From Leucoraja ocellata (taxonomy: Eukaryota): 63,815 bases of DNA. Location: NCBI GenBank assembly GCA_036785375.1, contig JAWMAR010000471.1, forward strand, positions 1,054,001-1,117,815. Reading direction: 5' to 3'. Position numbers and translations under genes: made by a program. Numbering within the stretch: position 1 is the stretch's first letter; each line of letters opens with the position of its first letter. A model generated the notes under the pieces. The model saw nothing but the letters and a program-made list of their open reading frames with translations, ran no database searches and was not told the DNA's origin. Positions 16,039 to 51,785 of the stretch are shown one piece after another.

Positions 16039-18557
16039 TTAATGATATTGTTTTACCAATTGCCCTATATTTTTAGCTCGGCGGAATGGATATGTTAGCA
16101 CACGGACCAACTCATCTCTGAACTTGCGCTGTGTCACGGTGTAAATGGCCGTGTTGGTGCAGGAGCTCAGGAGCTGAAGCATAAATCCAACCTTTTCAAA
16201 TTCGAACAGGGGGTTTGGCGAGGACCTGCGTAAGGGGAAATTAAACCATCGAAGCGCAATAAAATGTGCGACACTTGTGGCCCAGAGCAGGATGAAGGAG
16301 CTCGAGATTGCCAGAAGTAAAACGACCGACCGTCTGCGGTTCACCATCTCCTGGTCTTTCTTTTTCTCGCCACCGCTGAGATCTCGGAGGCTCCTGCGGA
16401 CCCGACTGGCCACGGAAATACGTCTGACGGTGAGCGCGTTAAACAACAAAATCAGGCAGAATGGAATCACCGGGGTGAACAACTGTTCGATCCAAGAGAA
16501 CACCATCCATTCGTGACGTATGTAAAAATTTACATCTTTGGCGCAGCCCAGATTCCGTTCACTTAGGAAATAGGGAACGTATGCGAAGGGCAAAGGTGTA
16601 TTCAGAAGGCAGACGAACGGGGTCACTGTCAGAATAACAATCGACGCGGTTCTCTCGGTGCAATATTTGGCCTTCATATTCTTAGTAGAAATCGCAACAA
16701 AGCGATCAAATGTGAACGCGACTGTGAACCATACAGAACATTCCACCGACACGGGAGCCAGGTAGAGTATTATTTTACACACAGGAGTGTAGGTCAATGA
16801 AGTAGGCCACCAATACATATCAGCAATCCGACGAAATACCACGTCCATGAGAAGCACAGAGAGGTCCGCGGTCGCCATGGCTACCATGTAACGAGTGATG
16901 CACTTGGTGAGGCCGCACTTGCCACGGGACAGGATCACAATCGCCATCAGATTCACTGGGAAAGAATGAAAACAGAACTGATTAATTGTGTGGTGTATAG
17001 GTTGGTGGGATGGGAGCAGACGGAGTAATTTAAACCTGTGTCTCCAGTGGTAGAGACTATTTATTTAATTAATCAATATTTGGGACAGTCACCCGTCAAA
17101 CGTTTGCCAAAACTATGTTCAATCAGATATTTATTAAATTCCTGATTACCAAAATTAGTGGCACTGCTTTATGTAGAAAATAATTACATAAAGATGAAAA
17201 TATTGGTACAAACGACAATCCGATTTTAGAAATCAGGGATTTAGTCTGCAAATGAATAAAATCCCGTTTACCAAAATTAGCGGGTTTGCCTTATGTAGTA
17301 ATCTTCACATCATTATGCCAATCGCTTGATGTTGATGTAACATCCATCGTTGATGTAAAATATACAATATTTTCAACCGGTCAGTCAGTGTCTCTGAAAA
17401 ATGGAATTAACAATCCAAATTACCGTCTATTAAATCAGAATGAAGAGGGGATCCTCCCAATATCAAATATGTGATTTAATTTTCCAACATGAAAGGATTT
17501 CAGGGAAGCGCAGCAAATATAATTACAAACACCCTTCACAAACAAGGCTAACAACATAACGGGCATGTATTTTCTGCCGAACAACGGGCGGACCTGTGTT
17601 CTGTCGCTGACAAGAAAAGGTGCTGGAGTATCTCAGTGGCGGAAGCAATATATCTGGAGGACATAGATAGGCGATGTATCAACTCGAGCCCCTTCTTCAG
17701 ACTCTGATCGGAACAATGATCCCAACCCGATACGTCGACTGCGTCGGTCCTCCAGAGATGCTGCAAGACTGGCTGAGTTAACCAGTCATTTGGTTCCACT
17801 GCAAGATATCTGCACGTGTAGTTTATTTTATCTGCACTCCGATTTTGTGGAACAGGTTGTACGTACGACCTTCAAACCTGTCTCTGCGAAATTATCCCTA
17901 TGAGAATTTAAGAGCGAATCATAAAATGCAGTGTCAAATGACTGGACGGGGTGTATTTCTCGTTCTGCCGAGTGCAGTACGCACAGTGGAACAGAAACTG
18001 CCACTCACAGCGAGGACGAAGTTTCGCTTCACCGACCGGCATTGATTTCAGTAAACAGCCGCGAAACTACATTCCTGCCAACGCCAATGAGCGGCATCCA
18101 TCACATACACCATCGCGCTTCCTCGCTCCTAAGATGTACATTGCTTAGTTTATTTTAGTTTAGGAATACAGCGCGAAAACAGGAAAACAGCCCACGTAAT
18201 CCGCGCCGGTCGCGCACACTAACACGAGCCGACACACACCAGGGACAATTTATTTTACTTTTATGGAGCGTGGGAGGTAACCGAAAATCTGGCGGAAAAC
18301 CTAAAAGGTTACGGGGACAAGGTACAAACTCCGCACAGACATCCGCTGTAAGACAGTTGGTCTAACGCTGCGCCGCCATGCAGCCCTAACGCCTGCTAGT
18401 TATTCGGTATGTTCTCTTAACCTTTAATATTCTGCGCGTTTAAAACAGTCTTTGATAGTTCCATGAGATGTACCGACAATTACCTACCAGGTATACCGAT
18501 TACTGCCAGAATCGGGTAATACACATTTTCTATATCCGTGATCTCCTCATAATACAT
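16039..18557 (-). CDS. Two-exon class A orphan GPCR, GPR139/GPR142-like, about 328 aa (exon 1 18557-18488, exon 2 16955-16039)
   Basis: Exon 1 MYYEEITDIENVYYPILAVIGIP, G|GTAGGT donor, joins CAG|TGAAT in phase 1. Seven hydrophobic segments, ATADL in TM2, TFDRF (DRY), CTNTAIY (NPxxY), Cys at the top of TM3 and in ECL2. Confidence 0.88.
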
Positions 18558-21500
18558 TTTAATGCGACGGTCCAGGCGACCACTCCTTGTGCTGCCACTC
18601 AGCGGTTGTCAGCGAAACAAACAAATATCTGGCATATTTATAAACTAGAGAAAGGGAAAACAGGCAACTAGATTACATCCCTGTGGACATTACTTACACA
18701 CTTTTGAACAAACATCTACTGTTTTACTCAGATTCACCTTATTCTTAAACTGTGGCCCCTGGTTCTGGACTCCCCCAACTTCGGGAACATGACTCGTGCC
18801 TTTTCCGTGCCCAAAGCTTTAATAATCTCATATGTTTCAATAAGATCCCCTCTGATTCTTCTGAATTACAGATTATACAAACCCAGCCACCCCATTATCT
18901 CAGCATATGACAACCTAGAAATTAACCACGTGAACCTACGCTGCATTCCTACAAGAGCAAGAATATTGGACCGGCTAGATGCAGGAAAAATATTCCGGAT
19001 ATTGTGAGAGTCCAGAAAAAGAGGTCCCAGTTTACGAATAAGTGGTCGGCCATTTAGAAACATAGGAACAATTTAGATGATTGAGGGGGCGATCTTATTG
19101 AAACTTACAAAATTCTTAAGGGGTTGGACAGGCTAGATACAGGATGATTGTTCCCGATGTTGGGGAGGTCCAGATCATAGAAACATAGAAACATAGAAAT
19201 TAGGTGCAGGAGTAGGCCATTCGGCCCTTCGAGCCTGCACCGCCAATCAATATGATCATGGCTGATCATCCAACTCAGTATCCCGTACCTGCCTTCTCTC
19301 CATACCCCCTGATCCCCTTAGCCACAAGGGCCACATCTAACTCCCTCTTAAATATAGCCAATGAACTGGCCTCAACTACCCTCTGTGGCAGAGAGTTCCA
19401 GAGATTCACCACTCTCTGTGTGAAAAAAGTTCTTCTCATATCGGTTTTAAAGGATTTCTCCTTTATCCTTAAGCTGTGACCCCTTGTCCTGGACTTCCCT
19501 AACATCGGGTACAATCTTCCCCCATCTAGCCTGTCCAACCCCTTAAGAATTTTGTAAGTTTCTATAAGATCCCCCCTCAATCTTCTAAATTCTAGAGAGT
19601 ATAAACCAAGTCTATCCAGTCTTTCTTCATAAGACAGTCCTGGCATCCCAGGAATCAGTCTGGTGAACCGTCTCTGCATTCCCTCTATGGCAATAATGTC
19701 CTTCCTCAGATTTGGAGACCAAAACTGTACGCAATACTCCAGGTGTGGTCTCACCAAGACCCTGTACAACTGCAGTAGAACCTCTCTGCTCCTATACTCA
19801 AATCCCTTTGCAATGAAAGCTAACATACCATTCGCTTTCTTTACTGCCTGCTGCACCTGCATGCCTACCTTCAACGACTGGTGTACCATGACACCCAGGT
19901 CTCGCTGCATCTCCCCCTTTTGATTGAGAGGGGATCTTATAGAAACTTACAAAATTCTTAAGGGGTTGGACAGGCTAGATGCAGGAAGATTGCTCCCGAT
20001 GTTGGACAAGTCCAGGACAAGGGGTCACAGCTTAAGGATAAGGGGAACATCCTTTAAAACCGAGATGAGAAGAACTTTTTTCACACAGAGAGTGGTGAAC
20101 TCTGGAACTCTCTGCCACAGAGGGTAGTCGAGCCCAGTTCATTGGTTATATTTAAGAGGGAGTTAGATGTGGCCCTTGTGGCTAAGGGGATCAGAGGGTA
20201 TGGAGAGAAGGCAGGTACGGGATACTGAGTTGGATGATCAGCCATGATCATATTGAATGGCGGTGCAGGCTCGAAGGGCCGAATGGCCTACTCCTGCACC
20301 TAATTTCTATGTTTGCTTTATTATTGTGTTTTGTATTGAATTCTGTCTTTACTTTGTGTACTAGTCATGTCTCTACTATTTATTTCATTCCCCTTACATG
20401 TTTTTCCTCTACCTGCTAAATTTTTGTAAGGTGTCCTTGGGACTCTTGAAAGGCGCCCATAAATAAAATGTATTATTATTATTATTATTATCCTTCGCAG
20501 TAAAGTTATTGGCCTTCCCTGTCTTATGAAGAAAGACTGAATAGACTTGGTATATACTGTCTAGAATTTAGGAGTTTGAGAGGGGATCTTATAGAAACTT
20601 ACAACATTCTTAAGGAGTTGGACAGGCTAGATGCAGGAAGATTGTTCCCGATGTTAGGGAAGTCCAGACAAGGGGTCACAGCTTAAGGATAAGGGGGAAA
20701 TCCTTTAAAATCGAGATGGGATGAACTTTTTTTCACACAGAGAGTGATGAATCTCTGGAACTCTCTGCGGGTCGTTGAGGCCAGTTCATTGGCTATATTT
20801 AAGAAGGAGTTAGATATGGCCCTTGTGGCTAAGGGGATCAGGGGGTATGGAGAGAAGGCAGGTACTGGATACTGAGTTGGATGATCAGCCATGATCATAT
20901 TGAATGGCGGTGCAGGCTCGAAGGGCCGAATGGCATACTCCTGCACCTAATTTCTATGTTTCTATACGTGTTTCCGTTTCTGCAAGATCTCCGCTCATCC
21001 TTCTAAATTCCAGTGAATACAATCCAGGTCTTTCCAACCTTTCCCCATATAACAGTCCCGCCATACCGGGTAGTAATCTGGTGAACCTTCGCTGTACTCC
21101 CTCCATAGCAAGGATGTCGTTCCCCAATTTAGGAGACCAAAACTGCACATCCAGATGTTGTCTCACCAAGGCCCTGTACGACCGCAGAAGGACGTCTACT
21201 CCTATACTCAAACAAAGCCAGAAACAAACTTCAAACAATGCCAGAAATCTCGGGGTTATTATGGATTCAGATTTACATTTCGACAGTCACATCAAATCAG
21301 TAAAAAAATCGGCTACTATCACCTCAAAAACGTAGTAAGACTAAGAGGACTCATGTCAGCTCAAGACTTAGAAAAACTTGTACATGCCTTTATTACTAGT
21401 AGGCTAGATTGTTGTAACGGTCTGCTTGCAGGTCTTCCGAAAAAGCTGTCAGGCAGCTACAGCTTGTTCAGATCGCTGTTGCTAGAGTTCTAACAAAGAC

Positions 21501-24164
21501 AAAAACATTTGAACACATTACACCAATTCTTAAATCCTTACATTGGCTCCCTGTATGTCAGAGAATTGATTTGAATATCCCGCTGCTCACCTATAAATTA
21601 CTACATGGATTAGGGCCAAAGTGTATCACTGACATGGTTCCACTATATAAGCCTTCTAGACCGCTAAGATCTTCTGAGACCAATCTGTTAGTCATTCCCA
21701 GAGTAAATACAAAACATGGGAAAGCAGGATTTAGTTACTATGCAACAAATAGCTGGAATAAACTTCCTGATGATTTAAGACTTGCCTCAACTTTAACCAC
21801 TTTTAAAACAAGACTGAAAACATTTAATGTTTACTTTAGCTTTCAGCTAAATCTTAACTACATTGCACTCTTAACTTTTGCACTTTTTTATAATGCACTT
21901 TTATTTTATTTTCTTTTAATTCATTTATTTTATTTCATTTTATTATTTCGTATTATTGTCTGACATGTTTTTTTATGTGAAGCACTTTGAGTCTGCCTCG
22001 TGTATGAAATGTACTATATAAATAAAGTTGCCTTGCCTTGCTTTACTCAAATCCTCTCGTATTGAAGGCCAACTTAATTTTCTTCACTACCAGGTGTACC
22101 TGAATGTTTACTTTCTGTGACTGGTGTACAAGGACACCCAGGTCTCGTTGCACATCCCTATTACCCAGTCTGACACCATTGTGACAGTAATCTGCTTCCA
22201 CGTTCTTGCCGTCAAAGTGGATAACCTCACATTTACCGACATTATACCGCATCTGCCATGAATCTGCCCACTCAATCAACCTGTCCAGGTCACCCTGCAA
22301 CCACCTAGCCTCCTCTTCGCAGTTCACAATGCCACCCAGCTTGGTGTAATCTGCAAATGTGTTCGTGTTCCTTTGTATTCCATCATCTAAATCGTTAATA
22401 TATATTGTGAATAGTTGTGGCCCCTGCACCGAGCCTTACGGCACTCCACTCGCCACTGCCTGCCATTTATGACAGGGACATCCTTCGTCAATTTTACTTG
22501 TCACATGCTCAAAAGATTCCAGAAGATTAGTCGATCAGGATTTCCCTGATGCCCTTGAGAATAATCCATCTCAGAGGCATCTCAAACTGCCTTTCTTGGG
22601 TTCCAGAATCAATCTGATTTTCTCTGTCTACCAGCATTTTTGAAACCTTCCGTAACAGCAGTGGCATTACATTTGTTACATCTCAATTTTAACTCCTGCT
22701 GCAACTTGCACCCTATATCCAAGCTACTGTTTCGGCGCCTGCAGATAACTCCCCTTGCCGACTTACCTTTTCAATTCCTCAATTCTATCCACAGCGAATT
22801 TACATCGTCCGTGGCTCTGTCAACCCTTGCATCAGCCAATCTTCCCTGTCCTGCCTGCAACTGGTCCAAAACGCCGCAGCGAGACTCCTGACGGGCACCC
22901 GAAAATGGGACCACATCACCCCGATCCTAGTCTCTCCACTGGCTCCCGCATACATTTCAAGACCCTCCTCTATGTCTACAAAGCCCTCGATGGGCTTGCC
23001 CCCTCCTACATTAAAAGTATTCTCATCCACCATACACCTCCAGGTACCACTGATCCGCGGACTTGGGGCTGCTGAATATCCCGTGGTCTAGGCATTAGCT
23101 TAGGGGCGATCGCGCCTTTGCGGTTGCAGCTCCTAGACTGTGGAACAGCATCCACCTTCCCATCAGAACTGCCCCCTCCATCGACTAAAGACAAGACTAA
23201 AATCCTATCTATACTCCCAAGCCTTTCCTGACGTCCACTGAGCGAGTGCTATATGTATATATGTATGTAGTTTGTATGTCTATACTATTCTTATAACAAA
23301 TGTAAAGCACTTTGACCAACGAGAGTTGTTGTTTAAATGTGCTATATAAATAAATGTGACTTGACTTGACTTGACATGCAAGGGATGCATCCCATCCCTC
23401 ATCAACAGAGCTACTCCACCTCCTGTGCCCACATGCCAAGATCATATTGAATCTTGGGTCAAAGGGAGAATGATTTACACCTACACGTATTTTCCATCTT
23501 TCTGTGTTTTCTCCATCCCTGCAGGTGACTGCATTATTTGCAATCTGTATGTTCCCTTTCACTGGCTCATTGACATTCGGAGGGATACCGGTACCCAGCC
23601 CGACTGTGGTCTCGCATTGACCTTTCGTCGATCTTACAAGCCGCGGTGCAGCAATTCCCACTACCTTCGGCCGTCCAGCCTGTCATCAAACAAACAAACA
23701 AACAGGTCTTGCACTGGCCTTCCTGCATTATTGCGGAGTTTCACAGGGGAGCGGCTGCCTCTGCTGACAAAACACCTCCGCCACCCGTTCAGTTTAGTTT
23801 ATTTGTCACGTATACCGATTGGAGAGGGGAATGTGCGTTCACCCTATCTACTGCCCCCATATGTTCAGCTGCCTGAATGGTTCAGATGGTCCTCTGATCG
23901 TCAGAGAAACGTCAGGGCCATATCAGATGTTTCACATCCGATTCCGGGCCACCAAACAAATCAGCAGATGTAACGATCCTCTTCTCAAACTCTCCCTCTC
24001 CTCGCACATCGATTTTCAAAAATTCCCAGAACACCGCCCGCACCGAAACGAACAGCCCAGCCTGAGGTCACCGCTCGGTTCTCCGGGATAGGCTGCAGGA
24101 TCTGTCTGGCGACCAGGTTTCCAGCCTCTCGTCACGCAAACTATTTATTCCCTGAGAAGGCGCG

Positions 24165-24686
24165 ATGGGAATCCTCCTGTTGTTTGTGCTGTCACTCTGA
24201 TTACGCCGTGAGTACCGGTCCCCTACTCCCACACAGTGCGGGTTTAACATAAAACAACTCGAGTCCACTCCGACCTGAATTTCAAACGCTGTCCGTGATG
24301 TATCCTTCTGCCGTGGTTCGCCTGGAATTCCCACTCACCTCTCCCTGTGTTTCATCTACAGACTCCTTCAGTCAGTCAGTGACCCAGAGCCCAAATGCGG
24401 TGACTGGAAAAGAGTGTGAGTCCGTCACCATCACCTGCCTTTTCCATGTTGGTTCCCGGGGTTACTACAAATTTAATGTAGGACATTTCTTCAAGCAAGC
24501 ACAACCCGGTGCTAAACGGCAACGGATCACAACAGGTGGACGGTTTGTTGTGTCAACCAATAAATTTACATTTACGTTGAAAATTCTTGGTTTGAGAGTT
24601 GAGGACAAGGCCACATATTACTGTCAAGCTGAGTACAGGTGGAGCATACACAGTGATGGGCCTGCGGTTCCATCAATACAAAAACC
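24165..24686 (+). pseudogene. NAR-TCR V, cassette 2: leader 24165-24207 with in-frame TGA, V exon 24362-24648 open, 22-RSS 24649-24686
   Basis: Leader codon 12 is TGA (24198-24200) where other copies have TGC. V exon SVTQSP...EDKATYYC is open. RSS is CACAGTG-22-ACAAAAACC. Confidence 0.85.
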
Positions 24687-25011
24687 CTGACGGCAGATTC
24701 TAGTAGCAACGTGAAGACGCTAGGTGAATCCACCGGGTAAACCCACGGGCCAACTTTGTCCCGCCTGCCCTGCATTCTGGGTTACACCGCATGAAATGCG
24801 TGCGATTCAAACAATGGGGTTTCTCTATTTGGCGAGTGCGGCTGGATAATGCCCCCTGTACCGAAAATGGTGTAAACGAACTGCCATCGAGAATGACTGA
24901 CCACTCTTCTGATGCACAACTCCAGACGGGATCCAGTTACACAAACTTCAATCTGAAAAATGCATTCGCTGAACGTTAATCTCCTGCCCGCCCGTCTCGC
25001 CGGGCGCCTGG

Positions 25012-25082
25012 GGATTTGAAAGTGACGTGTAACAACGTGTGGCAGCGGGATATCCACAGTGTAGGAGAGTCGAGTAAAAACT
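25012..25082 (+). other. D segment TGGCAGCGGGATATC (25040-25054) with 12/12 RSS, cassette 2
   Basis: GGATTTGAA-12-CAACGTG ... CACAGTG-12-GTAAAAACT. Confidence 0.8.
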
Positions 25083-25393
25083 CACCCCATTCAAGATATA
25101 TATTCTTGGGTTCCCCAACCAAAATATAACGAATATTGTTCGTGACGCTGTAGTCCAGATAAATTACACAGGGATTACCGCATTCCGTTAACATCCCTGA
25201 ATAATTGGTTCCCTGTTTGTCAAAACACACAAGCCTGCGTGTGGGAGATCACTCTGCTCTTAGCTCTGTTTCTTAGCGGGAACCGGTCGACCCACCGAGG
25301 ATTGGGAAGCAAGGACAGTCACCGGTTTGTCTGAAACTCCTGTAATAATTGGACAGCGATTCTAATGGTTGCCGGGCAAATCTTTGTGAGGAC

Positions 25394-25490
25394 TGTTCGT
25401 GTACTGCGAGCATCGAGAGACGGGGCACTGTGGATTCATGGAGCACTTACTATCAGGAAGGGACGGGGACTACGGTGACTGTCACAGCCG
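25394..25490 (+). other. J segment (25433-25490, DSWSTYYQEGTGTTVTVTA) with 23-RSS, cassette 2
   Basis: TGTTCGTGT-23-CACTGTG (degenerate nonamer); donor GTAAGT at 25491. Confidence 0.88.
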
Positions 25491-29619: not shown

Positions 29620-29925
29620 ATTCCATTTCCGCGGGTTCCCAGAGTCCGCCTCAACAATCCTCTCTTTCTGGTGACACCGCCACCTTTAACTGCGTATATT
29701 CCGGATTCTGCTCGTACACAATACACTGGTACCGACAGTTCCCAGGGCAGGCTCTGGAATTCCTGCTCCAAAGACACACTTCAGGAAAGCAAGACGAGGA
29801 AGAGGCTGCCGAAGGTCATATTTCTGGTTCTGTCGATCCTGCCCAGAAAATCAGTCAGTTAACGCTCTCTGAAGTACTGCCGAGCGACGAGGCTGTGTAT
29901 TACTGTGGGATGTGTCCGCGCATCG
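29620..29925 (+). CDS. Leaderless supporting TCR-delta-type V, cassette 2, intact
   Basis: Phase-1 acceptor in frame with the J donor. DSISAGSQSP...FNCVYSGFCSYTIHWYRQFPGQALEFLL...DEAVYYCGMCPRI, with an extra Cys in CDR1. No leader exon recognised in the J-V intron. Confidence 0.88.
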
Positions 29926-29964
29926 CACAGTGGCACAACGCAGTGAGATAGCTGTACCAAAACC
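29926..29964 (+). other. 23-RSS of supporting V, cassette 2
   Basis: CACAGTG-23-ACCAAAACC. Confidence 0.92.
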
Positions 29965-30149
29965 TCAGCGTTGCGGAATACAGGCACACAGCACTGCAGA
30001 ACATCTGGGGGCGCTAACCGAGAACCTCAGTGTAGCATGGATTGTTTACACGTTGCCACGGAAGGAGGGAAAGACAAAATTATAATGATAAATTATGTTG
30101 AGACTTACAGAAACACAATTAGTCTGGGAAGAGAGCGAGAGTAAGGGAG

Positions 30150-30150
30150 G

Positions 30151-34444: not shown

Positions 34445-35700
34445 TTATTTTAACTCACACTTTACCGATTTAAATATCTTTCCAGTGCAAATGATCGGAT
34501 ATTTTAGAACACGAAACAGCTCCTCTCTGAACTTGCTCTGGGTCACGGTGTAAATGGCCGTGTTGGTGCAAGAGCTCAGCAGCTGAAGCATAAATCCAAC
34601 CCTTTCCAATCCACCCAAGGGGTTTCCCCAGGCCTTGTGCATAAACACATTCAAACATCGAACCGCAATAAAGTGTGCAACACTTGTGGCCCAGAGCAGT
34701 ATGAAGCAGCTCGAGATTGCCAGAAGTAAAACGACCGACCGTCTGCGGTTCACCATCTCCTGGTCTTTCTTTTTCTCGCCACCGCTGAGGTCCCGGAGGT
34801 TCCTGCGGACCCGACTGGCCACGAAAATACGTCTGACGGTGAGCGCGTTAAACAACAAAATCAGGCAGAATGGAATCACCGGGGTGAACAACTGTTCGGC
34901 CCAAGAGAACACTATCCATTCGGGATCAACGAAGAAATATATGAATTTCAGGCAGCCCACTTCTCCAGCGGCACCGTAAAAAGAAGTGTATGCAAAGGGC
35001 AAGGGTAGATTTTTGAGGCAGATGAGCGGGCTCACGGTCAGGATAACAATCGTCGCGGTTCTCTCGGTACAATATTTGGTTTTCATTCTCTGAGTAGAAA
35101 TCGCAACAAAGCGATCAAAGGTGAAAGCGACTGTGAACCACACAGAACAATTCACAGAGACTGATGCCAGGTAGATTGTCATTTTACACACAGGAGTGTA
35201 GGGCACGGAGGCATGCCACCAATACATATCAGCAATCCGGTGAAATATCACCTCACAGAGAATCACGGAGAGGTCCGCGGTCGCCATGGCTACCATGTAA
35301 CGAGTGATGCACTTGGAGAGGCCGCACTTGCCACGGGACAGGATCAAAATCGCCATCAGATTCACTGAGAAAGAATGAAACGAGAAACAGATTAATTATG
35401 AGGTGTACAGGTTGGTGGATGGGAGCAGACGGAGAAAACCGAAGATTTCGGGGAAACCCAAAAGGATACGGGGAGCAGTACATCTCCGTACAGCCAAGCG
35501 CTGTAAGACAGTTACTCTAGCGCTGTACCAGCGTGCCGCCCGAACCCCCGCTGGGCTACTCGCTATGTCCTCTTAACCTTTAATATTCAGGGCTTTTCAA
35601 ACATGAGATGCGCCGACAATTACCTACCAGGTATACCGATTGCTGCCAGAATCGGATAATACACACGTCCAAATTTTACCTCGATCGGAATACCGTGCAT
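34445..35700 (-). CDS. Two-exon class A orphan GPCR paralog 2, about 330 aa (exon 1 35700-35628, exon 2 35364-34445)
   Basis: Exon 1 MHGIPIEVKFGRVYYPILAAIGIP; same splice sites and motifs as paralog 1; open frame; 263-nt intron. Confidence 0.88.
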
Positions 35701-38380
35701 TTTAATACGGGGATCCAGCCGATCACTCCTTGTGCTGCAGCTCAGCGGTTGTCAGCCAAGCAAACAAATATCTGCCATATTTATAATGTAAATGAAGGGA
35801 AAAACAGGCAACGAGATTACATCCCTGTGGACATTACTTACACACTTTTGAACAAACATCTACGGTTTTGCATGTAATACTCAAAATCACCTTGTTCTTA
35901 AACTGTGCCCCCCCCCCCCCCCCCCCCCGGCTCTGCACTCCCCAACATCGGGAACATGGTTCGCGATTCTAGCGTGTCCAAACCCTTAATAATCTGAAGA
36001 AGGCTTTCGGCCCGAAACGTTGCCTATTTCCTTCGCTCCATAGATGCTGCTGCACCCGCTGAGTTTCTCCAGCTTTTTTTGTGTAACCCTTGATAATCAT
36101 ATATGTTTAAATACGATCCCCTCTCATTCTTCTAAATTCCAGAGTATACAAGATCAGCCGCTCCATTCTCTCAGCATGTAACAGCCACACCATCCCGGGA
36201 ATTAACCTTGTGAACCTACGCTGCATTCCCTCAGTAGCAAGAATATTGGACCGGCTAGATGCAGGACAATGTTCCGGATATTGAGAGAGTCCAGAAACAG
36301 AGGTCCCAGTTTAAGAATAAGCGGTAGGCCATTTAGAAACATAGAAACAGAAAATTCGATGCTCGAGTAGGCCATTCTGTCCTTCGAGCCAGAACCGCCA
36401 TTCAATGTCGTCATGGCTGAACATCTAAAATCAGTACCTCGTTCCTGTTTGTACCCCATATCCCTTGATTCCTTTAGTCCCAAGAGCTAAATCTAACGTT
36501 CTCTTGCAACGTCCGGTGAAAATTCATCCACTCTATTCTGTGCCTGAGAATTCCACAGATTTACAACTCTCTGGGTGAAAGAGACGTGCCCTCATCTCAG
36601 TCCTAAATGGCCTATCCGTATTCTTAAACATTGAACCCTTATTCTCGACTCCACCAACATCGAGAACATGTTTCCTGCATATTGCCTTGCCAACCCTTTA
36701 AGAATTGTATATGTTTCTTTAACATACCCTCTCATCCTTCCAAATGCCAGTGAATACAAGCACACTCAACCCATTCTTTCATCATATGGCAGTTCCGCCA
36801 TCGCGGGAATTAACCTGGAGAACCGATGTTGCACTTCCTCAATAGAAATCATGTCCTTCCACAAATTAGGAGGCCAAAATCATTGACAAATGCGGCCTCA
36901 CAAGGGCCCAAAACAACTTAGGACTGAGATGGGGAAAATCTGTTTCTCCCAGAGAGTTGTAAATCTGTGGAATGTTCTACCACAGAAGGCCGTGGAGTCC
37001 AATTCACTGGAATATTTCACAAGAGAGTTAGATTTAGCTCTTCGGGCTAAACGAAACAAGGGATATGGGGAGAAAGCAGGAACGGGGTACTGATTTTAAA
37101 TAGAAACATCGAAACATAGAAATATAGGTGCAGGGAGAGACTATAAGGCCCTTCCAGTCAGCACCGCCACGATCATAGCTGCTCATCCACAAACAAATAC
37201 CCGTGCCTTTCTTCTCCCCATGCCCCTGCATCCCGCTAGCCCCAAGACCTCTAGCTGTCTTTTAATTTCATCCAGTGAATTGGCCTCCATTGTCTTCTGT
37301 GGCAGAGATTTCCACAAATTGACAACTCTCTTGGTGAAAGAGATAATTCTCATCTCAGTTTTAAATGTCCTCCCCTTTCTTCCAGGACTTTGGCCCCTGG
37401 TCTGTGCTCCCCCAGCATTGGGAACATTTTTCCTGCATCTAGCTTGTCCAGTACTTTTATAATTGTATATGTTTCTATAAGATCGCCCCCTCATCCTGCT
37501 GAATTCGAATGAATACATGCCCAGTCTTTCTCATATTCCTCAAATGACAGACCTGCCATACCTGGGATTAACCTTGTAAACTCCCTCAATAGCAAGGAAG
37601 TCCTTCCCCTAATTAGGAGACATAAACTGCACACAATATTCAACATGTTGTCTCACCAGTGCCGTGTACAACTGCAGAAGGACCTCCTTACTCGTGTACT
37701 CAAATCCACTCATTATGAAGGCCAACATACCATTACATTTCTTTACTACCTGCCGTAGGACACGCAGGTCACGTTCCACTTCCCATTTTCCCCAATTGAA
37801 ACCATTGAGATAATAATCTACCTCGATGTTCTTGTCGTCAAAGTGGATAATCTCGCATTTACCTGCATTATGCAGCATCTGCCATGTTTCTGCCCACTCA
37901 CTCAACCTATCCAAGTCTCCCTGCAACCACCTGGCATCCTTTCCGCAGTTCAAACTATCACCCAGCTTTGTGTCATCTGCAAATTTGCTCGTGTTACTTT
38001 TAATTCCATAATCTAAATCACTAATATATATTGTCAATAGTTACGGCCCCTGCACCGAGCCTAGCGGCACTCCACTCGCCACTGCCTGCCATTCTAACAG
38101 GGACCTTCTTGTTCCATTTTACTTGTCACATTCTCAAACATTCCAGATCGGAGTCAAGCAGGATTTCCCTTCCATAACTCCATGCTGACTTGGACTAATC
38201 ATTTTACCGCTATCCAAATGCGCCGTTGTTACTTTAAAAACTGACTCTGGCATCTTCCCCAGTTCCGATATCAGGCTAACTGGTCTCTAATTTCCCGTTT
38301 TCTCTCTCCCTCCTTTCTTGAAAAGTGGGGTAACATTAGCTCCCCTCCAATCCACAGGAACTGATCCTGAAGCTATAGAA

Positions 38381-41300: not shown

Positions 41301-41411
41301 CTCCACACACACCTGGATCTCTTGCCATCAGGCAAGAGATATCGAAGCATCAAAGCCCGGACTACGAGGCTGCTAAACAGCTTCCTACCACAGGCTGTGA
41401 GGCTGCTAAAC
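38381..41411 (+). mobile_element. Near full-length Rex1/Babar-like non-LTR retrotransposon (APE + RT), disrupted, 3' end in gap
   Basis: NVRSL / FTESWL / GDFN endonuclease motifs; [15 protein letters not shown]-terminal [10 protein letters not shown]...[12 protein letters not shown]. Frameshift near 39500 and a damaged DFSSAFN region. Absent at the paralogous site near 55266. Confidence 0.82.
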
Positions 41412-41611
41412 NNNNNNNNNNNNNNNNNNNNNNNNNNNNNNNNNNNNNNNNNNNNNNNNNNNNNNNNNNNNNNNNNNNNNNNNNNNNNNNNNNNNNNNNN
41501 NNNNNNNNNNNNNNNNNNNNNNNNNNNNNNNNNNNNNNNNNNNNNNNNNNNNNNNNNNNNNNNNNNNNNNNNNNNNNNNNNNNNNNNNNNNNNNNNNNNN
41601 NNNNNNNNNNN
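41412..41611. other. Assembly gap (200 N)
   Basis: N run. Confidence 1.
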
Positions 41612-42078
41612 GACAGTAATATGTGGCCATGTCCTCAACTCTCAAACGAATAATTTTCACTGTAAATGATTTTTCCGCTTTATTGGACGACACAACAAAC
41701 CGTCCACCTGTTGTGATCCGTTGCCGTTTAGCACCGGGTTGTGCTTGCTTGAAGAAACCTCCTACATTAAATTCGTAGCTGCCACTGGAACCTTCTTTGA
41801 AAAGGCAGGTGATGGTGACGGACTCACACTCTTTTCCAGCCACCGCATTCGGGCTCTGGGTCACTGACTGACTGAAGGAGTCTGTAGATGAAACACAGGG
41901 AGAGGTGAGTGGGAATTCCTGGCGAACCACGGCAGAAGGATACATCGCGGACAGTGTTTGAAATTCAGGTCGGAGTGGACTCGAGTTGTTTTATGTTAAA
42001 CCCGCACTGTGTGGGAGTAGGGGACCGGTACTCACGGCGTAAGCAGAGTGACAGCACAAAAAATAGGAGGATTCCCAT
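41612..42078 (-). CDS. Inverted NAR-TCR leader (42078-42036) and V exon (41881-41612), truncated by gap
   Basis: Reverse complement of 4900-5366. Protein appears identical to cassette 1 V up to YYC. RSS, D and J would lie in or beyond the gap. Confidence 0.85.
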
Positions 42079-42832: not shown

Positions 42833-45800
42833 TGTAGATCAGTGCATGTTCCTTTAACCATAGTGACCTCCCGTATTACTAACCACTCCCCATTGTCTCC
42901 AGTATAATTGTAGTGTCCCCACCTCTAGCTCGCTCTCTAGCTCCAGTGATGACCACGGACAGCTACAGCATAGTGATTAACAGTTACCTAATAAATAGTT
43001 ATAGTAAAAGACTTGTGTGTGTGCAGTAAGTCCTTTTACATGGTGTCATAGCGGTAGACGTGCGTCTCCTGTTCATCGGTTTTTGTTTTATTATTTCTTT
43101 CTCCCAGTCCTTCCCTCCTTTCTTTTATCATGTCCCACCACTGTCGTCGACCAGACACGTTGGTGTTCGACACGGACATTGTCCATCGCTGGACCGTGTT
43201 CCAGCGCGATTACGAGCATTACATTGCTATCGCCCATCCTGATGCCACTCCTGCTGTACAGGCTCACCTATTGCTTAACCTCGCGGGACCTGCAGCTATG
43301 GATCAGTATGCATCGTTCCATTTCGCCGCCGGAGAGGACCGCAACGACCCGGTATGTCTCCTTAATAAGTTCGCTGCCCTCTGTGATATTCCTACCAACA
43401 ACATCATCGAACGCTTCAAATTCTTCCAGAGGCAGCAGCTGCCAGGCGAGCCTGTCGGCACTTACATTGCCGCCTTGCATCACCTGGCTCAGCGCTGCCG
43501 CCTTGACACAATCACCCTTGACGAATTAATTAGGGACGTCCTGGTCAATGGTCTCCGCAACGATAGACTGCGTGAGCAGCTCTTAGTTAAACCCGATCTG
43601 ACACTGCGGGATGCTATGTATTCTGCGCGCATGTCCGAAGCCGTTGGTTCCGTGTCCAGACAGGCTCCCCAGGACATTAACTTCACCGGTCAAGCCGGTC
43701 GCCTGACTACGCGACGCAACCCCGCGGCTCTCCCCATGAAAGTCGCCACCTCCACTGTCCCGCGACGCTGCCCTAACTGCTTTTTTACGGCTCATCCCTC
43801 AAACATTTGCCCCGCACAGGGCAAGACCTGTCTTTCCTGTGGCAAACTCGGGCACTTTTCTGCCGCCTGCCGTTCCCGTGGGAAGCCAGTCCCTGCTCCA
43901 AGAAGGAGTCTAAACAACCTTGCCGAACTAAACAACATTGCACTCCCTGATAGCGCTCTGCTTTCCCAGTACGAGCTGGAGGAGCTCCCCGACTCTGATG
44001 CACTCCCCTCTCGTGAAGATCCAACTATTTGTTTCACTTTTGGGTACACCTGCTCTGATTACGGATCCCTCTGTGCATGTTACTGTGAACGGCCATTCCT
44101 TTTCAGCCAAGGTCGATACTGGCGCTTTCGCCAATGTTATGTCAATAAGCCTTTTCAAGCAGATCAGATCTGGTGAGAAAGTTCTTCCTGGCGACACCTG
44201 CCTCCATGCCTACGGGGGGGGAGTCCTGATTCCCGTGGGTAAGGCAACTCTTATCTGCACAGTTCTAGAGACCTCTCGGCCCCTCACTTTCCACCTGCTG
44301 GACTCTGACAACGTCACCCTGCTGGGCGCCCGTGCGTGTCAGGACTTAGGGCTAGTCTCATTCCACCGCGGCATTCACCTGGTGCAAGCCCCCATGGACC
44401 CCCTGGCCGAGTACCCCGACCGTTTTGATGACGTTCTGGGCAAGCTGCCCTGCGACTACAAGATTGTTGTCGACCCGAGCGTCGACCCGGTGATTCGGCC
44501 GGCACACCGCGTCTCCTTTGCCATGAAGGGCCGCGTGGAGTCTACTCTGCGCGATATGGTGACCATGGGCATCCTCAAGGAGGTGAGCGCTCCCACCGGG
44601 TGGGTCTCCACCATGGTCGTCGCAGCCAAAAAGGACAAAAGCGAGATCCGGATCTGCATTAACCCCAAGGACCTCAACCTTGCCATCAAGCGCCCCCACT
44701 ACCCCATGCGGACGGTAGAGGACGTTGCTGCACAGGTCGGCCCTGCTACTGTCTTTTCAGTCCTAGACGCCAAGAGCTCCTTCTGGCAGATCCCTCTGGA
44801 CGAACGCTCCTCATTCCTCACCACGTTCAGCACTCCCTTCGGCCGGTTCCGTTTCCTCCGCATGCCGTTTGGAATCAACTCTGCCAGCGAGGTTTTCCAG
44901 CGCACCATGGAGCAACTGTTTGCCGGCTTACCGTGCGCCATCATCGTGGATGACATTCTGGTGTACGGGAGGGACGTTGCTGAGCACGACCTGAACCTCC
45001 GCAAAGGCCTGGACAGGGCGCGGGTGATAAACCTCAAGCTGAACCCGAAGAAATGCCGGTTCCGGGTTCCAGAAGTCACTTACGTTGGCCATGTCTTCAC
45101 GGCTGGGGGTCTCAAACCTGACCCCCAGAAAACGTCAGCGGTCACTGACATGCCCGCTCCTACCGACGTCCCTGGCCTGCAGCGTTTCCTGGGCATGGTC
45201 AATTACCTGGGTAAATTCATACCCGACCTCAGTGAACTGAGTGCCCCCCTTCGGGAACTAATCAAAAAGGACTCCGCGTGGGTCTGGCTCCCGCACCACC
45301 AGTCAGCTTTCGTGACTCTGAAGCTAAAGCTTGCCGCTACCCCGACTTTGAAATTTTTCGACCTGCACCGACCCATTATCCTCACTTGCGATGCCTCGAA
45401 GTTTGGTCTCGGTGCCGCTTGTCTGCAGCTTTATGACAACCTTCAGCTGCCCGTCTCCTACGCTTCTCGCACCATGACCCCTGCCGAGCTGCGATATGCC
45501 CAGATTGAAAAAGAGCTGCTTGCCGTGGTCGTCGCTTGCTCCAAGTTTAAAGACTACATCCTCGGCAACTCTTTCACCATCGAGACTGACCACCAGCCGT
45601 TGGTGACAATCCTTAATAAACCTATCCATGTTGCTTCTTCCCGGTTGCAGCGCATGATGCTGCAGCTCCAGCGTTTCACGTTCCAGATCGTCTACTGTAA
45701 GGGCAAAGACATGTTTGTAGCTGACACTCTTTCTCGTGCTCCGCTGCCTTCCGTTGTCCGTCACCCGTACGAATCCTCCGACCTTCTGGTACTAAACGTC

Positions 45801-47461
45801 AACATTGTTCCTTCACAGCAAATGCAGTCCCTGGTCCAACATACTGCTGATGATCCTGCCCTGCAACAACTTGCGGACGTTATCCGCCGTGGTTGGCCTG
45901 ACCGTCGCTCCGAACTGCCTGCTAACGCGGCACCATATTTCCTCGTTCGCGACGAACTGGTGCTTCACGCCGGCGTGGTGGTAAAGGGTCACAAAGTCGT
46001 GGTGCCTGCCGCCCTGCGGGATCATTACTTCCAGTCTGCTCACAGCGGCCACCCCGGGGTGGAAGCTACTTTATCCCAGGCCCAGAGCCAATTCTACTGG
46101 CCAGGTATGGCTCAAGACATCCGTGACAGGGTCTCCGCCTGCGCTGCCTGCAACACCCTGCACCCCCATCAGCAGCGCCAGCCTCTCCTGCAACCGCCGG
46201 CTCCAGAACTCCCATGGATGGCCGTTGCCACCGACCTCTTTGAGTGGCCCCGGTGACCCTCCGGTCCGACAACGGCAGCCAGTTCTCCAGCGACGAGTTC
46301 AAGACCTTTGCTGCCCGTTGGAACTTTAACCACATCACCAGCAGCACCGAGTTTCCTCAAAGCAACGGACTTGCTGAACGGGCCGTTCGTAGTGCCAAGG
46401 AGCTGCTGGAACACTACCGCCTGTTCCGTGCCGATTTCCACCTTGCCCTGCTTAACCTCCGCAACATTTCCCGCGACCCTGCGCTCGGTTCCCCTGCCCA
46501 GCGCCTCATGTCTCGCACCACCAGACCTCCCCTGCCGGTCTCCCAGCAGTCCCTCAAGCCCTCAGTACAAAACCCTGCCACTGTCACTGAGCGCATTGCC
46601 AAAAAACAGGTGACCCAGAAGCGCTCCTTTGACAAATCCGCCCGGCCCCTTCCACGTCTGTTCCCGGGGCAGGTTGTCCGAATGCAGTCCCCCACTGGCC
46701 ACTACCGCCTGGCCGTCGTAGTCGGCGACGCCGGTTCTCCGCGGTCCTACTTCGTCGACTACGAGGGGGCTATCTACCGTCGCTCCCGCCAGCACCTACT
46801 CCTTGTGAATGAGCCCGCTCCGCCTCCCGCGGATCCTTCTCACCCCCCCCCCCCCCATCTCTTCTCGACCTCCCGTTGCCCCTCACGCCCCGGCAACACC
46901 TCGCATGCCACGCACCCTACCTTCACAACTGTCCGCCCGTTCCCCTGCCTCGCCTGTCAAGCCGGCATCGCCCGCAAAACCTACCTCGCCTGCCAAGCCT
47001 GTTTCTCCACCCGGAGCCCCGCGTTCTCCTCCGCCCGCCTCTCCTGCCCATCCCCCGGCTGCTGTCCCTTCTGTTCCCGACGATGAGGAGGAGGGCGGTT
47101 TACGCACCCGCTCTGGCCGGCTGGTCAGGCCGCCTGTCCGCTACGGGGAACACGCATAGTGTTGTACTGTTGCCGGTGCGGTTGGTGTTCTTAGCGTATG
47201 AGCCGTGGTCACTCTGTATAGTACCTGCCATGCTTTTGTTTCCAAGAGGAAGGATGTAGATCAGTGCATGTTCCTTTAACCATAGTGACCTCCCGTATTA
47301 CTAACCACTCCCCATTGTCTCCAGTATAATTGTAGTGTCCCCACCTCTAGCTCGCTCTCTAGCTCCAGTGATGACCACGGACAGCTACAGCATAGTGTCA
47401 AAGAGTTACTTTAATAAACAGTTACAGTAAAAGACTTGTGTGTGCAGTAAGTCATTTTACA
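42833..47461 (+). mobile_element. Gypsy/Ty3 LTR retrotransposon: LTRs 42833-43040 and 47255-47461, gag from 43130, pol about 43938-47159; defective
   Basis: TG...CA LTRs of about 208 bp, PBS TGGTGTCA at 43041, PPT AAGAGGAAGGA before the 3' LTR, CCHC knuckle, protease VDTGA, RT IVDD, RNase H CDAS, integrase HHCC. Deletion/frameshift in the integrase core near 46250. No TSD. Confidence 0.93.
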
Positions 47462-49506
47462 GTATCTCTACAGGAAAACGATACATGACGTTTCTGGTCA
47501 GGATCCTTCTTCCGTCTGCAAGTAGGGCGAGGCCACTGGATGCAAGAGTAGGCCAGAGCGAGGCAGGGAAGGCAACACGTGACTAGGAAATGAAGGAGCC
47601 CATAATGGCCCATTGTTGGCTGTGGAATAAGTGGTCACAAACAACTACAAAGATGCGAGCAGTACAACTACTGCGATGACTATGTTGGAGGAGAGGGTGA
47701 GAGAAAGGGAGTCAAGCGACCTATGAGATGCTGTTCCTCCATTTTGTGCGTGGTCTCGCTCTAGCAGTTGAGGAGGACAACGACAGAATGGTTTATATGG
47801 GAATGGGTAGAGGTGTTAAAATGTTTGCCCACCGGGGAACGTAAAGGCCAATGTGGAAATTGATTTATTACCGTACATGGGAGACACAGAGTCACAGAGT
47901 CACAGAGTGATACAGTGTGGTATCAGGACCTTCGGCCCAACTCGCCCACACCGGCCAACAATATCCCAGATACACCAGTCCCACTTGCCTGGGCTTGGTC
48001 CATATCCCTCCAAATCTCTCCTATCCAAGTAACTTTCTAACTGTTGCTTAAATGACGGGATAGTCCCAGGCACAACTACCTCTTGTCGCAGCTTGTTCCG
48101 TACATCCACCAGCCTTTGTATGAGAATGTTTCCCCACCGAATCCTCTTAAATATGTTTCCCTTCTCCTTGATCCAATGTCCTCTGGTCGTCGATTCACTG
48201 GGCAAACGACTCTGTGCATCTAACCGATACATTCATCTCATGATTTTGTATTTCTGGCACTCCTCACCTATAGCTTTACTTTCGGTGGACGTTTTCCGCA
48301 TACAGAAGGTATTTTAATCACGGTATCTGTATGAAACTTTACACAATCCACATCATCCGGTAAATTTACATGGTAAATGGCAAGGGAATTGAAGAATGCA
48401 GGTGAACAGAGGGATCTGGGAATAACTGTGCACAGTTCCCTGAAAGTGTAATCGCATGTAGATAGGGTGGTAAAGAAAGCTTTTGGTGTGCTGGCCTTTA
48501 TAAATCAGAGCATTGAGTATGGAAGTTGGGATGTAATGTCAACATTGTACAAGGCATTGGTGAGGCCAATTCTGGAGTATGGTGTACAATTTTGGTCGCC
48601 TAATTATAGGAAGGATGTCAACAAAATAGAGAGAGTACAGAGGAGATTTACTAGAATGTTGCCTGGGTTTCAGCAACTAAGTTACAGAGAAAGGTTGAAC
48701 AAGTTAGGGCTTTATTCTTTTGAGCGCAGAAGGTTAAGGGGGGACATGATAGAGGTATTTAAAATGATGAGAGGGATAGACAGAGTTGACGTTGATAAGC
48801 TTTTCCAACTGAGAGTAGGGAATATTCAAACAAGGGGACATGACTTGAGAATTAAGAGACTGAAGTTTAGGGGTAACATGAGGGGGAACCTCTTTACTCA
48901 GAGAGTGGTGGCTGTGTGGAATAAGCTTCCACTGAAGGTTGTGGAGGCAGGTTCGTTATTATCATTTTAAAATAAATTGGATAGTTATATGGACGGGAAA
49001 GGAATGGAGGGTTATGGTCTGAGCGCAGGTATGTGGAACTAGGGGTGAATACGTGTTCGGCACGGACTAGAAGGGTCGAGATGGCCTGTTTCCGTGCTGT
49101 AATTGTTATATGATTATATGGATATATCCGCTGCTAAAACAGCAGATTATCTTCAAACCGAAAACCTCGTCAATGAGCAATGATACGTCTGTTCAATGAT
49201 GAAAGGAAATCATCAAACAACACGATGCACCTATTCAACTGAAAATCTTCACTCGTTTTGAAAACAATATGTTCCGGGCATATATATACATATTCGTGAA
49301 AATACAGAAATTGAATGATTCAACGGGGCACATGGGAATACGTACAAGAGGTGAGACTCAATTGAGCCCATGAACCTACTAAGCAGCCGGGCGTGTCCGA
49401 CAGGGCGAATGGACATAAAATGTCCACACATTAAATGCTGTCTTTTCACATAAACCCTACAGCAAAGCAACGCATTAAGCCCAGCTGGTCATTCGTTCTT
49501 GTTATA

Positions 49507-51785
49507 TTATTTTAACTTACACTTTACCGATTTAAATATTTTTCCAGTGCAAATGATCGGATATGTTAGTACACGAAACAGCTCCTCTCTAAACTTGCTC
49601 TGGGTCACGGTGTAAATGGCCGTGTTGGTGCAGGAGCTCAGCAACTGAAGCATCTGTCCAACTCTTTCGAATTCTTCCAAAGGGTTTCTCCAAGCCTTGC
49701 GCATAAACACTTTTAAACTTCGAACCGCAATAAAATATGCAACACTTGTGGCCCAGAGCAGGATGAAGGAGCTCGAGATTGCCAGAAGTAAAACGACCGA
49801 GCGTCTGCGGTTCACCATCTCCTGGTCTTTCTATCTCTCCCCACCGCTGAGGTCCCGGAGGTTCCTGCGGAACCGGCTGGCCACGAAAATACGTCTGACG
49901 GTGAGCGCGTTAAACAACAAAATCAGGCAGAATGGAATCACCGGGGTGAACAACTGTTCGGCCCAAGAGAACACCAACCATTCGGCATGAACGTAAAAAT
50001 CTACGAGTTTGAGGCAGCCCAGTTCTCCACCCATTCCGAGATAAGAAGTGTATGCAAAGGGCAAGGGTAGATTTTTGAGGCAGATGAGCGGGCTCACCGT
50101 CAGGATAACAATCGTCGCGGTTCTCTCGGTGCAATATTTGGTTTTCATGTTTTGAGTAGAAATCGCAACAAACCGATCAAAGGTGAAAGCGACCGTGAAC
50201 CACACAGAACAATTCACCGTGACCGATGCCAGGTAGATTGTTATTTTGCACACAGGAGTGTAGGGCAAGGAGGCATGCCACCAATACATATCAGCAATCC
50301 GGTGAAATATCACCTCACAGAAAATCACAGAGAGGTCCGCGGTCGCCATGGCTACCATGTAACGAGTGATGCAATTGGAGAGGCCGCACTTGCCACGGGA
50401 CAGGATCAAAATCGCCATCAGATTCACTGGGAAAGAATGAAAACAGAAACTGATTAATTGTGTGGTGGGTGGGAGCAGACGGAGTCATTTAAACCTGTGT
50501 CGCCAGTGGTAGAGACTGTTTATTTAACGAATCAGTATTTGGGTCAATCATCCGTCAATCGTTTGCCGGAAAGATGTTCATTCAGTAAATTATTAAATTC
50601 TTGATTACCAAAATTAGTGGGATTGCCTTATGTAGAAAATAACTACATAAAGATGAAAATATTGGTACAAGAGGCAATCCGATTTTAGAAATCAGGAAAT
50701 TAATCTGCAAATGGATAACATATCGTTTACCAAGATTAGTGGGAGTGCCTTTTGTACTAATCTTCACAACATTATGCCAACCGTTTGATGTTGATGTAAA
50801 ATATAGAACATGTTCTAGCGGTGAGTCAGTGTCTCTAAAAAATTGAATTAACTATCCAAAGTACCGTCTATCAAACCAGAATTAAGAGGGGATCCCCCCC
50901 AATATAAAATATGTGATTTCAATTTCATACTGGGACATTCAAATGCGCAGTGTCGTTTTTATTGCTGAGACATGGGCAACTTTTGCGTCGGGGCATTGAG
51001 TCAATCGCGGTCTGAATTAACGCGGTCTGTTTTCCATTGGGCCTTCGAGAATGCATCTCCCAACACGGGGCCAAGGAAAGGGATACAGTGAAGCGCAGCA
51101 AATATAATTACAAACACCCTTCGCAAACACGGCTAACAACATAACGGGCAGGTGTTTTCTGCCGAACAGCGGGCGGGCCTGTGTACTGCACCTGACAAGA
51201 GCCAATGGTGGAGTAACTCAGTGGCGCAAGTAATATCTCTGGAGAACATCGATAGGAGACGTAGTAAAATCAATACGGGCATTGATTTTAGTAAAAAGCC
51301 GCGAGGGCTACATTTCTGCCAGCTTCAATGAGCGGCATCCATCACATATACAAACGCGCTACCTCGCTCCTGAGGTGGATATCGCTTACTTTATTTTAGT
51401 TTAGGAATGCAGCGCGAAAACACAACACCGGCTCACCTAATCCGCATCGATCGTGCACACTCACAACAACAACACACACAAGGGACAATGTATTTTACTT
51501 ATATGGAGCGTGGGAGCAAACCGAAGATCTCGGGGAAAACCCAAAAGGATACGGGGAGAACGTACAAACTCCGTATAGACAAGCGCTGTAAGACATTTAT
51601 TCTAGCGCCGCGCCAGCGTGCCGCCCTAACCCCCGCTGGGCTACTCGCTATGTCCTTTTAACCTTTAATATTCTGCGCTCTTCAAACATGAGATGTGCCG
51701 ACAATTACCTACCAGGTATACCGATTGCTGCCAGAATCGGATAATACACAAGTCCTATTTTTTCCTCGATCGCAACAACGTCCAT
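49507..51785 (-). pseudogene. GPCR paralog 3 (exon 1 51785-51713, exon 2 50426-49507) with in-frame TAG in ICL3
   Basis: Exon 1 MDVVAIEEKIGLVYYPILAAIGIP. LSGGER*KDQEM (AAG>TAG at 49831-49833); both ORF halves are in the same frame. Confidence 0.82.

Follow-up and report, generated by a model that had tools for sequence, protein, structure and literature searches.

Chemosensory receptor repertoires such as OR, TAAR, V1R and V2R form very large tandem arrays that evolve by birth and death and carry a variable outer face and a short N-terminus on a conserved signalling core. The coding regions of OR, TAAR and V1R genes are typically single-exon. GPR139 and GPR142 are vertebrate orphan receptors of G protein-coupled receptor (GPCR) class A for L-Trp and L-Phe. 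Here, we describe three class A GPCR genes of two exons each (A, B and C), all on the minus strand of a 63,815-nucleotide stretch of Leucoraja ocellata DNA (NCBI GenBank assembly GCA_036785375.1, contig JAWMAR010000471.1, positions 1,054,001 to 1,117,815; hereafter, the window), where they alternate with immunoglobulin-type V-D-J cassettes. Like the chemosensory repertoires, the family to which these genes belong is large and clustered (834 motif matches), with a variable outer, ligand-side face, a conserved core and a short N-terminus. Unlike OR, TAAR and V1R genes, its members have two coding exons, and no search that we made assigned the family to OR, TAAR, V1R or V2R.

GPCR genes also occur in mammalian T-cell receptor (TCR) loci. 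Parts of PMC4574546 place olfactory receptor genes among the TCR variable (V) segments of TRA/TRD (human OR10G2 and OR4E2; mouse Olfr1507-1509), a precedent for bystander GPCRs. The skate array likewise has GPCR genes among TCR V segments. The mammalian loci hold two or three such genes at the 5' end, whereas the skate genes belong to a different GPCR family, extend over at least 0.8 Mb of V region and form part of a repeated unit. This unit resembles the new antigen receptor TCR (NAR-TCR), the doubly rearranging TCR-delta of cartilaginous fish, whose layout is given in portions of PMC3457774, PMC6795676 and PMC12227049 as an IgNAR-like V-D-J with a supporting TCR-delta V after it. The skate cassettes share this layout and a place in the TCRalpha/delta locus but are interleaved with GPCR genes; the text and two supplements of PMC12227049 (Table S1 in part 1 of 2) contain no mention of GPCR genes inside NAR-TCR cassettes. 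For chicken FFAR2 (GPR43), PMC4453067 describes a lineage-specific tandem expansion in which gene conversion was extensive and a few residues on the ligand side came under positive selection, a precedent for conversion plus limited selection. The chicken expansion has ~23 genes and known ligands, whereas the skate family is orphan, with 834 motif hits in one assembly.

As reported below, divergence in the outer loops of the skate genes has outrun that of flanking DNA on a conserved core. We lean towards an explanation in which old loop types were kept and reshuffled between copies by recombination on the conserved core, with positive selection likely at only a few sites.

Divergence and selection on the outer face

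The sequence-only reading of the window described the paralogs as hypervariable only on the extracellular face. The N-termini and the second and third extracellular loops (ECL2 and ECL3) that it quoted for the three genes match the sequence, and their contrast with the core is real. Between A, B and C, 10/12 positions vary in the N-terminus, 18/24 in ECL2 and 14/18 in ECL3 (75-83%), against 3/36, 3/30 and 2/23 in transmembrane helices (TM) 5, 6 and 7 (8-10%), which are near-invariant as described, and 2/21 in TM1. The word 'only' does not hold: the intracellular C-tail varies at 13/25 positions (52%) and ECL1 at just 4/14 (29%). Counts for intracellular loop (ICL) 2, TM2 and TM4 are 3/10, 7/28 and 6/25. 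Region boundaries came from the AlphaFold model of B exon 2 (predicted local distance difference test, pLDDT, 87) and were drawn after the alignment had been seen, so the comparison is not blind. That reading was also right that noncoding DNA around exon 1 aligns easily (76-88% identity) and that the N-terminus is about 12 residues long, with ~12-13 residues before the YYP motif of TM1. Such a combination of variable outer loops and conserved core is common among GPCR paralogues, and the pattern alone is modest.

We examined selection in three clades, all hand-picked from 126 scored hits. The local clade comprises 15 intact genes, 12 from contig C471 and 3 from C2754 and C1182, contigs that could be alternative haplotypes; it excludes 5 broken copies and 2 in which no exon 1 was found. 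Clade 2 has 16 genes from C471 and C128, leaving out one copy with a stop and one divergent copy, and clade 3 has 12 genes from C10. Gene C carries a premature in-frame TAG within ICL3, absent from the sequence-only reading, and with this stop masked it entered only the A/B/C count of variable positions and the comparison with flanking DNA. The latter used 19 disjoint pairs picked on noncoding similarity. Codon models were run on five segment-specific trees per clade with our own GY94/F3x4 code, which is not PAML and was not validated by simulation; site posteriors are naive empirical Bayes.

When the synonymous rate was shared between regions, loop omega (dN/dS) was 1.85, 1.66 and 1.66 in the three clades (p = 1e-5, 7e-4 and 0.025; 1.66-1.88 in one summary of the range), compared to 0.44, 0.31 and 0.44 elsewhere. 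Core omega was 0.31-0.48 in all three clades, and purifying selection on the receptor core is supported. M2a fitted better than M1a in the local clade (p = 1.6e-5) and in clade 2 (p = 1.3e-8), with omega ~3.7 at ~10% of sites, as did M8 over M8a in the local clade (p = 1.3e-6). Among sites with a posterior above 0.9, 5/6 and 9/10 lie in loops or the N-terminus (Fisher p = 0.002 and 6e-6), and the other two are at 2.61 and 6.51; the M2a sites of the local clade are 12, 66, 154, 158, 167 and 271. With a loop-specific rate, the site-model p was 0.014 in the local clade, 0.005 in clade 2 and 0.57 in clade 3. Relative to flanking DNA, non-synonymous divergence across the 19 pairs was 1.58x in the loops (pair bootstrap 1.28-2.06) and 0.33x in the core. 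Loop amino acid divergence is thus above that of noncoding DNA, and the outcome that the sequence-only reading named as refuting its claim (loop dN/dS of 1 or less, with loops no more divergent than intronic DNA) was not observed. In distant local pairs, repeats that inserted independently may have raised the flank estimates, in which case the loop excess would be understated.

Significant standard site models in two of three clades, together with loop non-synonymous divergence above the flank, are what would be expected of ongoing strong diversifying selection on the whole extracellular face, an arms race with, for example, pathogen or prey molecules. Clade 3 adds a loop pN/pS (non-synonymous over synonymous differences) of 2.4 (1.3-8.0) and a loop omega of 3.4 when the loops have their own synonymous rate, and raised loop dS could itself reflect selection resisting conversion.

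Several results weigh against selection acting across this face. Site models found no significant positive selection in clade 3 (p = 0.13). Under gamma-distributed site rates, the positive-selection p was 0.16 in the local clade, 0.043 in clade 2 and 1.0 in clade 3, and with a loop-specific synonymous rate the clades disagree, loop omega being 1.40 (p = 0.11), 1.00 (p = 0.99) and 3.43 (p = 0.005). Only 12/19 pairs had loop pN above the flank (p = 0.18 by sign test, 0.005 by Wilcoxon test), and in clade 3 only 1/5 did. Class A pocket positions, taken as a class, were not elevated (omega 0.70, 0.30 and 0.43 in the three clades), and the intracellular C-tail is nearly as free as the loops (0.57-1.21). 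Across a 264 kb region of the array, 5/17 GPCR copies are broken as assembled, although some single-base losses may be assembly errors.

Overall loop dN/dS was ~1.1-1.9. Pooled loop pN/pS was 1.19 (0.93-1.54), compared to 0.39 elsewhere, by a distinct-state count that is insensitive to conversion homoplasy, and 1.12 (0.92-1.37) pairwise. Region-wide, loop dN/dS is not clearly above 1 because loop synonymous sites are raised too: they stand at 1.40x the flank (1.99x in clade 2) and other synonymous sites at 0.83x, and the excess also appears in columns with invariant amino acids in two of three clades. An arms race over the whole face is unlikely, given these pooled intervals that include 1, a signal that is lost or marginal under site-rate variation, and loop types nearly unchanged between skate genera (described below), which rapid turnover would not leave. 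The claim of diversifying selection on ligand contact sites therefore survives in part: selected outer-face sites in two of three clades and loops above the flank stand, while region-wide loop dN/dS has intervals that include 1 and the signal grows weaker or disappears under rate variation.

The same figures could also arise if the loops were unconstrained (omega ~1), a frequent state of outer loops in paralogous GPCRs, conversion reset cores and flanks, and the copies were largely passengers of NAR-TCR cassette duplication. Loop pN/pS indistinguishable from 1, raised loop synonymous divergence, the free C-tail and the broken copies all fit such relaxation, as does the finding that, in the local clade, M2a fits no better than M1a once rate variation is added to the latter. 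Distances between GPCRs and their adjacent NAR-type V segments are uncorrelated over 10 units (Mantel rho 0.10, p = 0.27, and 0.04), which argues against a fixed functional pairing and is also consistent with passenger copies. However, near-identity of loop types across genera points to constraint within each type, and loops exceed the flank even in whole-unit duplicates (gene A versus its C1182 copy: loop pN 0.18, flank 0.032). With the core under purifying selection in every clade and the family large far from the TCR locus, on many contigs, we judge fully relaxed loops to be about as improbable as an arms race.

Recombination and the age of loop types

A PHI-type test (pairwise homoplasy index) detected recombination in all three clades (p = 0.003, 0.003 and 0.037). 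Mosaics are plain in the alignment, for example an A-type exon 1 on a B-type body. In a quick tree, A-type and B-type genes each group with one Leucoraja and one Amblyraja protein, with Shimodaira-Hasegawa-like approximate likelihood ratio test (SH-aLRT) values of 100 and 94. ECL3 of A differs from little skate P0003 at 1/18 positions and ECL3 of B from P0001 at 1/18, compared to 13/18 between A and B, and the N-terminus of A is identical in P0003. A neighbouring A-type copy differs from Amblyraja P0004 at 3/24 positions in ECL2 and 2/18 in ECL3, and in Amblyraja P0002 an A-like N-terminus is combined with a C-like ECL3. Because these loop types recur in little skate and thorny skate proteins, the loop differences appear in large part to be old, reflecting types that were retained and shuffled. 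ECL2 has held its types less well, B and P0001 differing at 13/24 positions, and is the best candidate for continuing change.

Artefacts of assembly or alignment (collapsed or chimeric repeats, haplotype duplicates, misaligned loops) could in principle produce both the mosaicism and the rate excess. The region contains N stretches of scaffold type, several copies have lost single bases, C2754 and C1182 could represent other haplotypes of C471, and the N-terminus alignment needs a one-codon gap. ECL2 and ECL3 of A, B and C, however, align gap-free, and the same loop types and a mosaic recur in independently assembled Leucoraja and Amblyraja proteins, so that we consider artefacts a very improbable source of the pattern.

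Under the explanation that we favour, retention and reshuffling of old loop types, the window holds three tandem copies, one of them broken, of a skate orphan class A GPCR among NAR-TCR cassettes, the N-terminus, ECL2 and ECL3 of the receptors having outpaced the flanking DNA on a conserved core. Unequal crossing-over of a unit holding a GPCR and a NAR-TCR cassette would have multiplied the copies, and crossing-over together with conversion would remix them, recombination itself being detected. Each loop type, with a few pocket residues (2.61, 3.37 and 7.39), would set ligand preference, and the near-invariant TM5-ICL3-TM6 and TM7 would feed one shared G-protein pathway, giving many inputs and one output. 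By analogy with known repertoires, sensory cells, at somewhat under even chances, would be the foremost site of action, followed at a distance by leukocytes and, slightly less probably, other tissue.

A receptor family separate from GPR139

The window genes are class A receptors: PF00001 scores above its cut-off, the model of B has seven helices plus helix 8 (pLDDT 87), and Foldseek matches this model to class A receptors with a TM-score of ~0.7. B has D2.50, D-R3.50, Cys3.25 with the ECL2 Cys, P5.50, W6.48 and N7.49/Y7.53, all of which hardly vary over 46 family rows; in B, T replaces P6.50 and P7.50. Among the best 120 of 2196 relatives, the nearest proteins with a species name belong to skates (Leucoraja 88%, Amblyraja 83%). 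Nearly all of these 120 are labelled 'probable G-protein coupled receptor 139'; where named, they come from cartilaginous fish, across sharks, rays and chimaeras, and none comes from outside this group.

A family profile searched against solved structures found human GPR139 as its top but weak match (E = 8e-19), and a single-sequence PDB search gave no match at E<=1e-5. The true GPR139 of this genome is on contig C465, in two near-identical copies (E = 3e-150 to human GPR139). The 46 family rows share 18-25% identity with true GPR139, and B is 19% identical to the genome's own. We rejected GPR139 orthology of the window genes on this low identity, on the separate true GPR139 on C465 and on separation in a tree, which had one outgroup row and so shows separation, not a sister relationship. 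The motif search returned only the two GPR139 copies and yielded no GPR142 sequence. The exon 2 copies of GPR139 type at C465:706093 and 753270 (L081 and L082) are inverted and ~47 kb apart, and are either real or an assembly duplicate.

GPR139 and the window family are alike in having W6.48 and lacking P7.50. They differ in that R6.51, E3.32 and F3.33 are absent in the window genes, that the window family has a Cys3.25/ECL2-Cys pair which GPR139 lacks in the alignment, and that the skate family has hundreds of copies compared to one or two. Parts of PMC8807744 describe Arg at 6.51 as unique to GPR139/142 and needed for activation. This position is Ser in A, B and C and Arg in 3/46 family rows. 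Because R6.51 is absent, a GPR139-like single conserved ligand is unlikely, which supports the sequence-only reading on this point. Positions 2.61, 3.32, 3.33, 6.51 and 7.39 vary across the 46 rows.

One 29-base degenerate family motif has 834 exact matches in the assembly, on many contigs (reversed control, 0), a count that includes pseudogenes and haplotype duplicates and misses members with an altered motif. Our literature search, whose scope excluded subscription papers and bioRxiv supplements, found no description of this receptor family or of GPCRs in the shark TCR locus, and 'GPR' is absent from the main text of a catshark sensory-genome paper (PMC11979771).

The NAR-TCR array and a possible repertoire

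The window is part of a tandem array. Its unit pairs a minus-strand GPCR gene with plus-strand segments that follow it in the order leader, VNAR-like V with a recombination signal sequence (RSS), diversity (D) segment, joining (J) segment and a second, TCR-delta-type V with an RSS (Table 1). Leader, V-RSS, D-RSS and J occur as a full set three times in the window, an alternation with GPCR genes that the sequence-only reading did not report. By sequence, these cassettes are of NAR-TCR type, having an IgNAR-related V with its own D, J and recombination signals, and the top single-domain PDB matches of the cassette 1 V are VNARs.

Table 1. Positions in the window of receptor genes and cassette segments
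Feature	Position	Strand	Remarks
GPCR A coding exon 1	18488..18557	-	ATG 18557; 23 codons plus 1 base; TATA box 18635-18642
GPCR A exon 2	16039..16955	-	intact 328-aa class A receptor; A-type loops; PF00001, E 4e-17
GPCR B coding exon 1	35628..35700	-	ATG 35700; TATA box 35778-35785; 263-bp intron
GPCR B exon 2	34445..35364	-	intact 330-aa receptor; B-type loops; 7TM model, mean pLDDT 87
GPCR C coding exon 1	51713..51785	-	ATG 51785; TATA box 51863-51870
GPCR C exon 2	49507..50426	-	in-frame TAG at codon 223 (49831-49833, ICL3); broken as assembled
NAR-TCR-type cassette 1	4900..6239	+	leader 4900-4942; VNAR-like V 5097-5389, RSS at 5390; D 5782-5797 with 12-RSS; J 6176-6239
Supporting TCR-delta-type V	9576..9917	+	23-RSS; frameshifted as assembled
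NAR-TCR-type cassette 2	24165..25490	+	head-to-head with GPCR A (5.6 kb); V 24362-24648; D 25040-25054; J 25433-25490
Supporting TCR-delta-type V	29620..29964	+	open frame; 23-RSS
Inverted NAR-type leader and V copy	41612..42078	-	cut by N stretch 41412-41611
NAR-TCR-type cassette 3	57941..59266	+	head-to-head with GPCR C (6.1 kb); leader; V 58138-58424; D 58816-58830; J 59209-59266
Supporting TCR-delta-type V	63308..63651	+	23-RSS; one base short near start as assembled

Each GPCR gene has a TATA box ~80 bp 5' of its ATG and a phase-1 GT-AG intron. At position 49833 of gene C, RNA contigs of two unlabelled runs have a non-stop base; neighbouring sites differ too, and these contigs may come from other paralogues. 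Six raw RNA runs (another organism label, unlabelled tissues, 85% likeness), matched against a neighbouring unit and gene C exon 2, gave few short partial matches at conserved TM stretches and are taken as uninformative; on that neighbouring unit, these same runs placed no reads on the NAR V-D-J. A look-up of RNA data sets listed none that contains gene B. The leader of cassette 2 (24165-24207) has an in-frame TGA. In the genomic DNA, a V with a splice acceptor and a 23-RSS, a candidate for the leaderless supporting V that rearranges to D-delta, lies 3' of each NAR-TCR cassette, and two of these three V segments are frameshifted as assembled.

Over the 264 kb region, 10/17 GPCR copies stand head-to-head with a NAR-V leader, ~2.7-6.2 kb apart, and 10/11 forward NAR-Vs have a head-to-head GPCR neighbour. 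We place the array in the TCRalpha/delta locus because a large V array lies upstream, over the first 0.95 Mb of C471, and FGxG J-alpha-type segments with 12-RSS lie downstream, at 1.399-1.455 Mb (C exons not located). A NAR-V protein search for the linkage in other species gave no match at E<=1e-8.

The array also contains germline-joined segments. At C471:1004653-1004997 and 1020166-1020510 (L002 and L003), a NAR-type V is joined to a D remnant followed by the 12-RSS of the D; a third such copy, recognised by V similarity, is on C2754 near 30.4-30.7 kb. D-J segments joined with extra junction bases are found at C471:1031934-1032061 and 1044988-1045111 (L004 and L006) and point to RAG having once acted on this array in the germ line. 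More distant family GPCRs (41-53% identity) sit among V segments at C471:1281081-1346866 (L063-L069), and come within ~20 kb of the 12-RSS located at 1366961. At C471:1183854-1193231 (L013 and L014), two mosaic GPCR copies, near-identical and inverted relative to each other, surround an N stretch; both have an exon 1 of A type, a body of B type and two extra residues in ECL2, and the pair is possibly an assembly duplicate. At C10:6.2-6.5 Mb and on C7, C2063, C2073 and C3594, tandem repeats combine members of a separate GPCR clade with broken NAR-V-like segments, most of which share the orientation of the GPCR.

Within the window, an LTR (long terminal repeat) retrotransposon-like element at 42833-47461, with 209-bp terminal repeats that are 94.7% alike, adjoins the inverted NAR-V copy; its gag-like open reading frame (ORF) spans 43058-44173, and 46244-47083 matches integrase weakly. 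A long reverse-transcriptase ORF (PF00078) of a long interspersed nuclear element (LINE) occupies 13507-14850, and the spacers are full of shorter LINE copies.

The family and its location matter more than the loop pattern. The misleading label 'probable GPR139' has kept these genes hidden. GPCRs in a repeated NAR-TCR unit are a marker of locus expansion and could show whether embedded non-immune genes are affected by V(D)J rearrangement. In its boldest form, the finding would mean that cartilaginous fish have an unrecognised repertoire of many hundreds of receptors whose cassette copies act in T cells, rearrangement switching on the head-to-head GPCR. We give this little credence; if true, each NAR-TCR clone would gain another variable receptor, one encoded in the germline. 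A milder form comes close to an even chance: a large repertoire, sensory or immune, would have been overlooked, and its copies in the TCR locus would be bystanders. The lineage of sharks and rays has very few olfactory receptors. If the family is a ligand-diversified repertoire, it would be a candidate means for sharks and rays to detect chemicals or immune cues.

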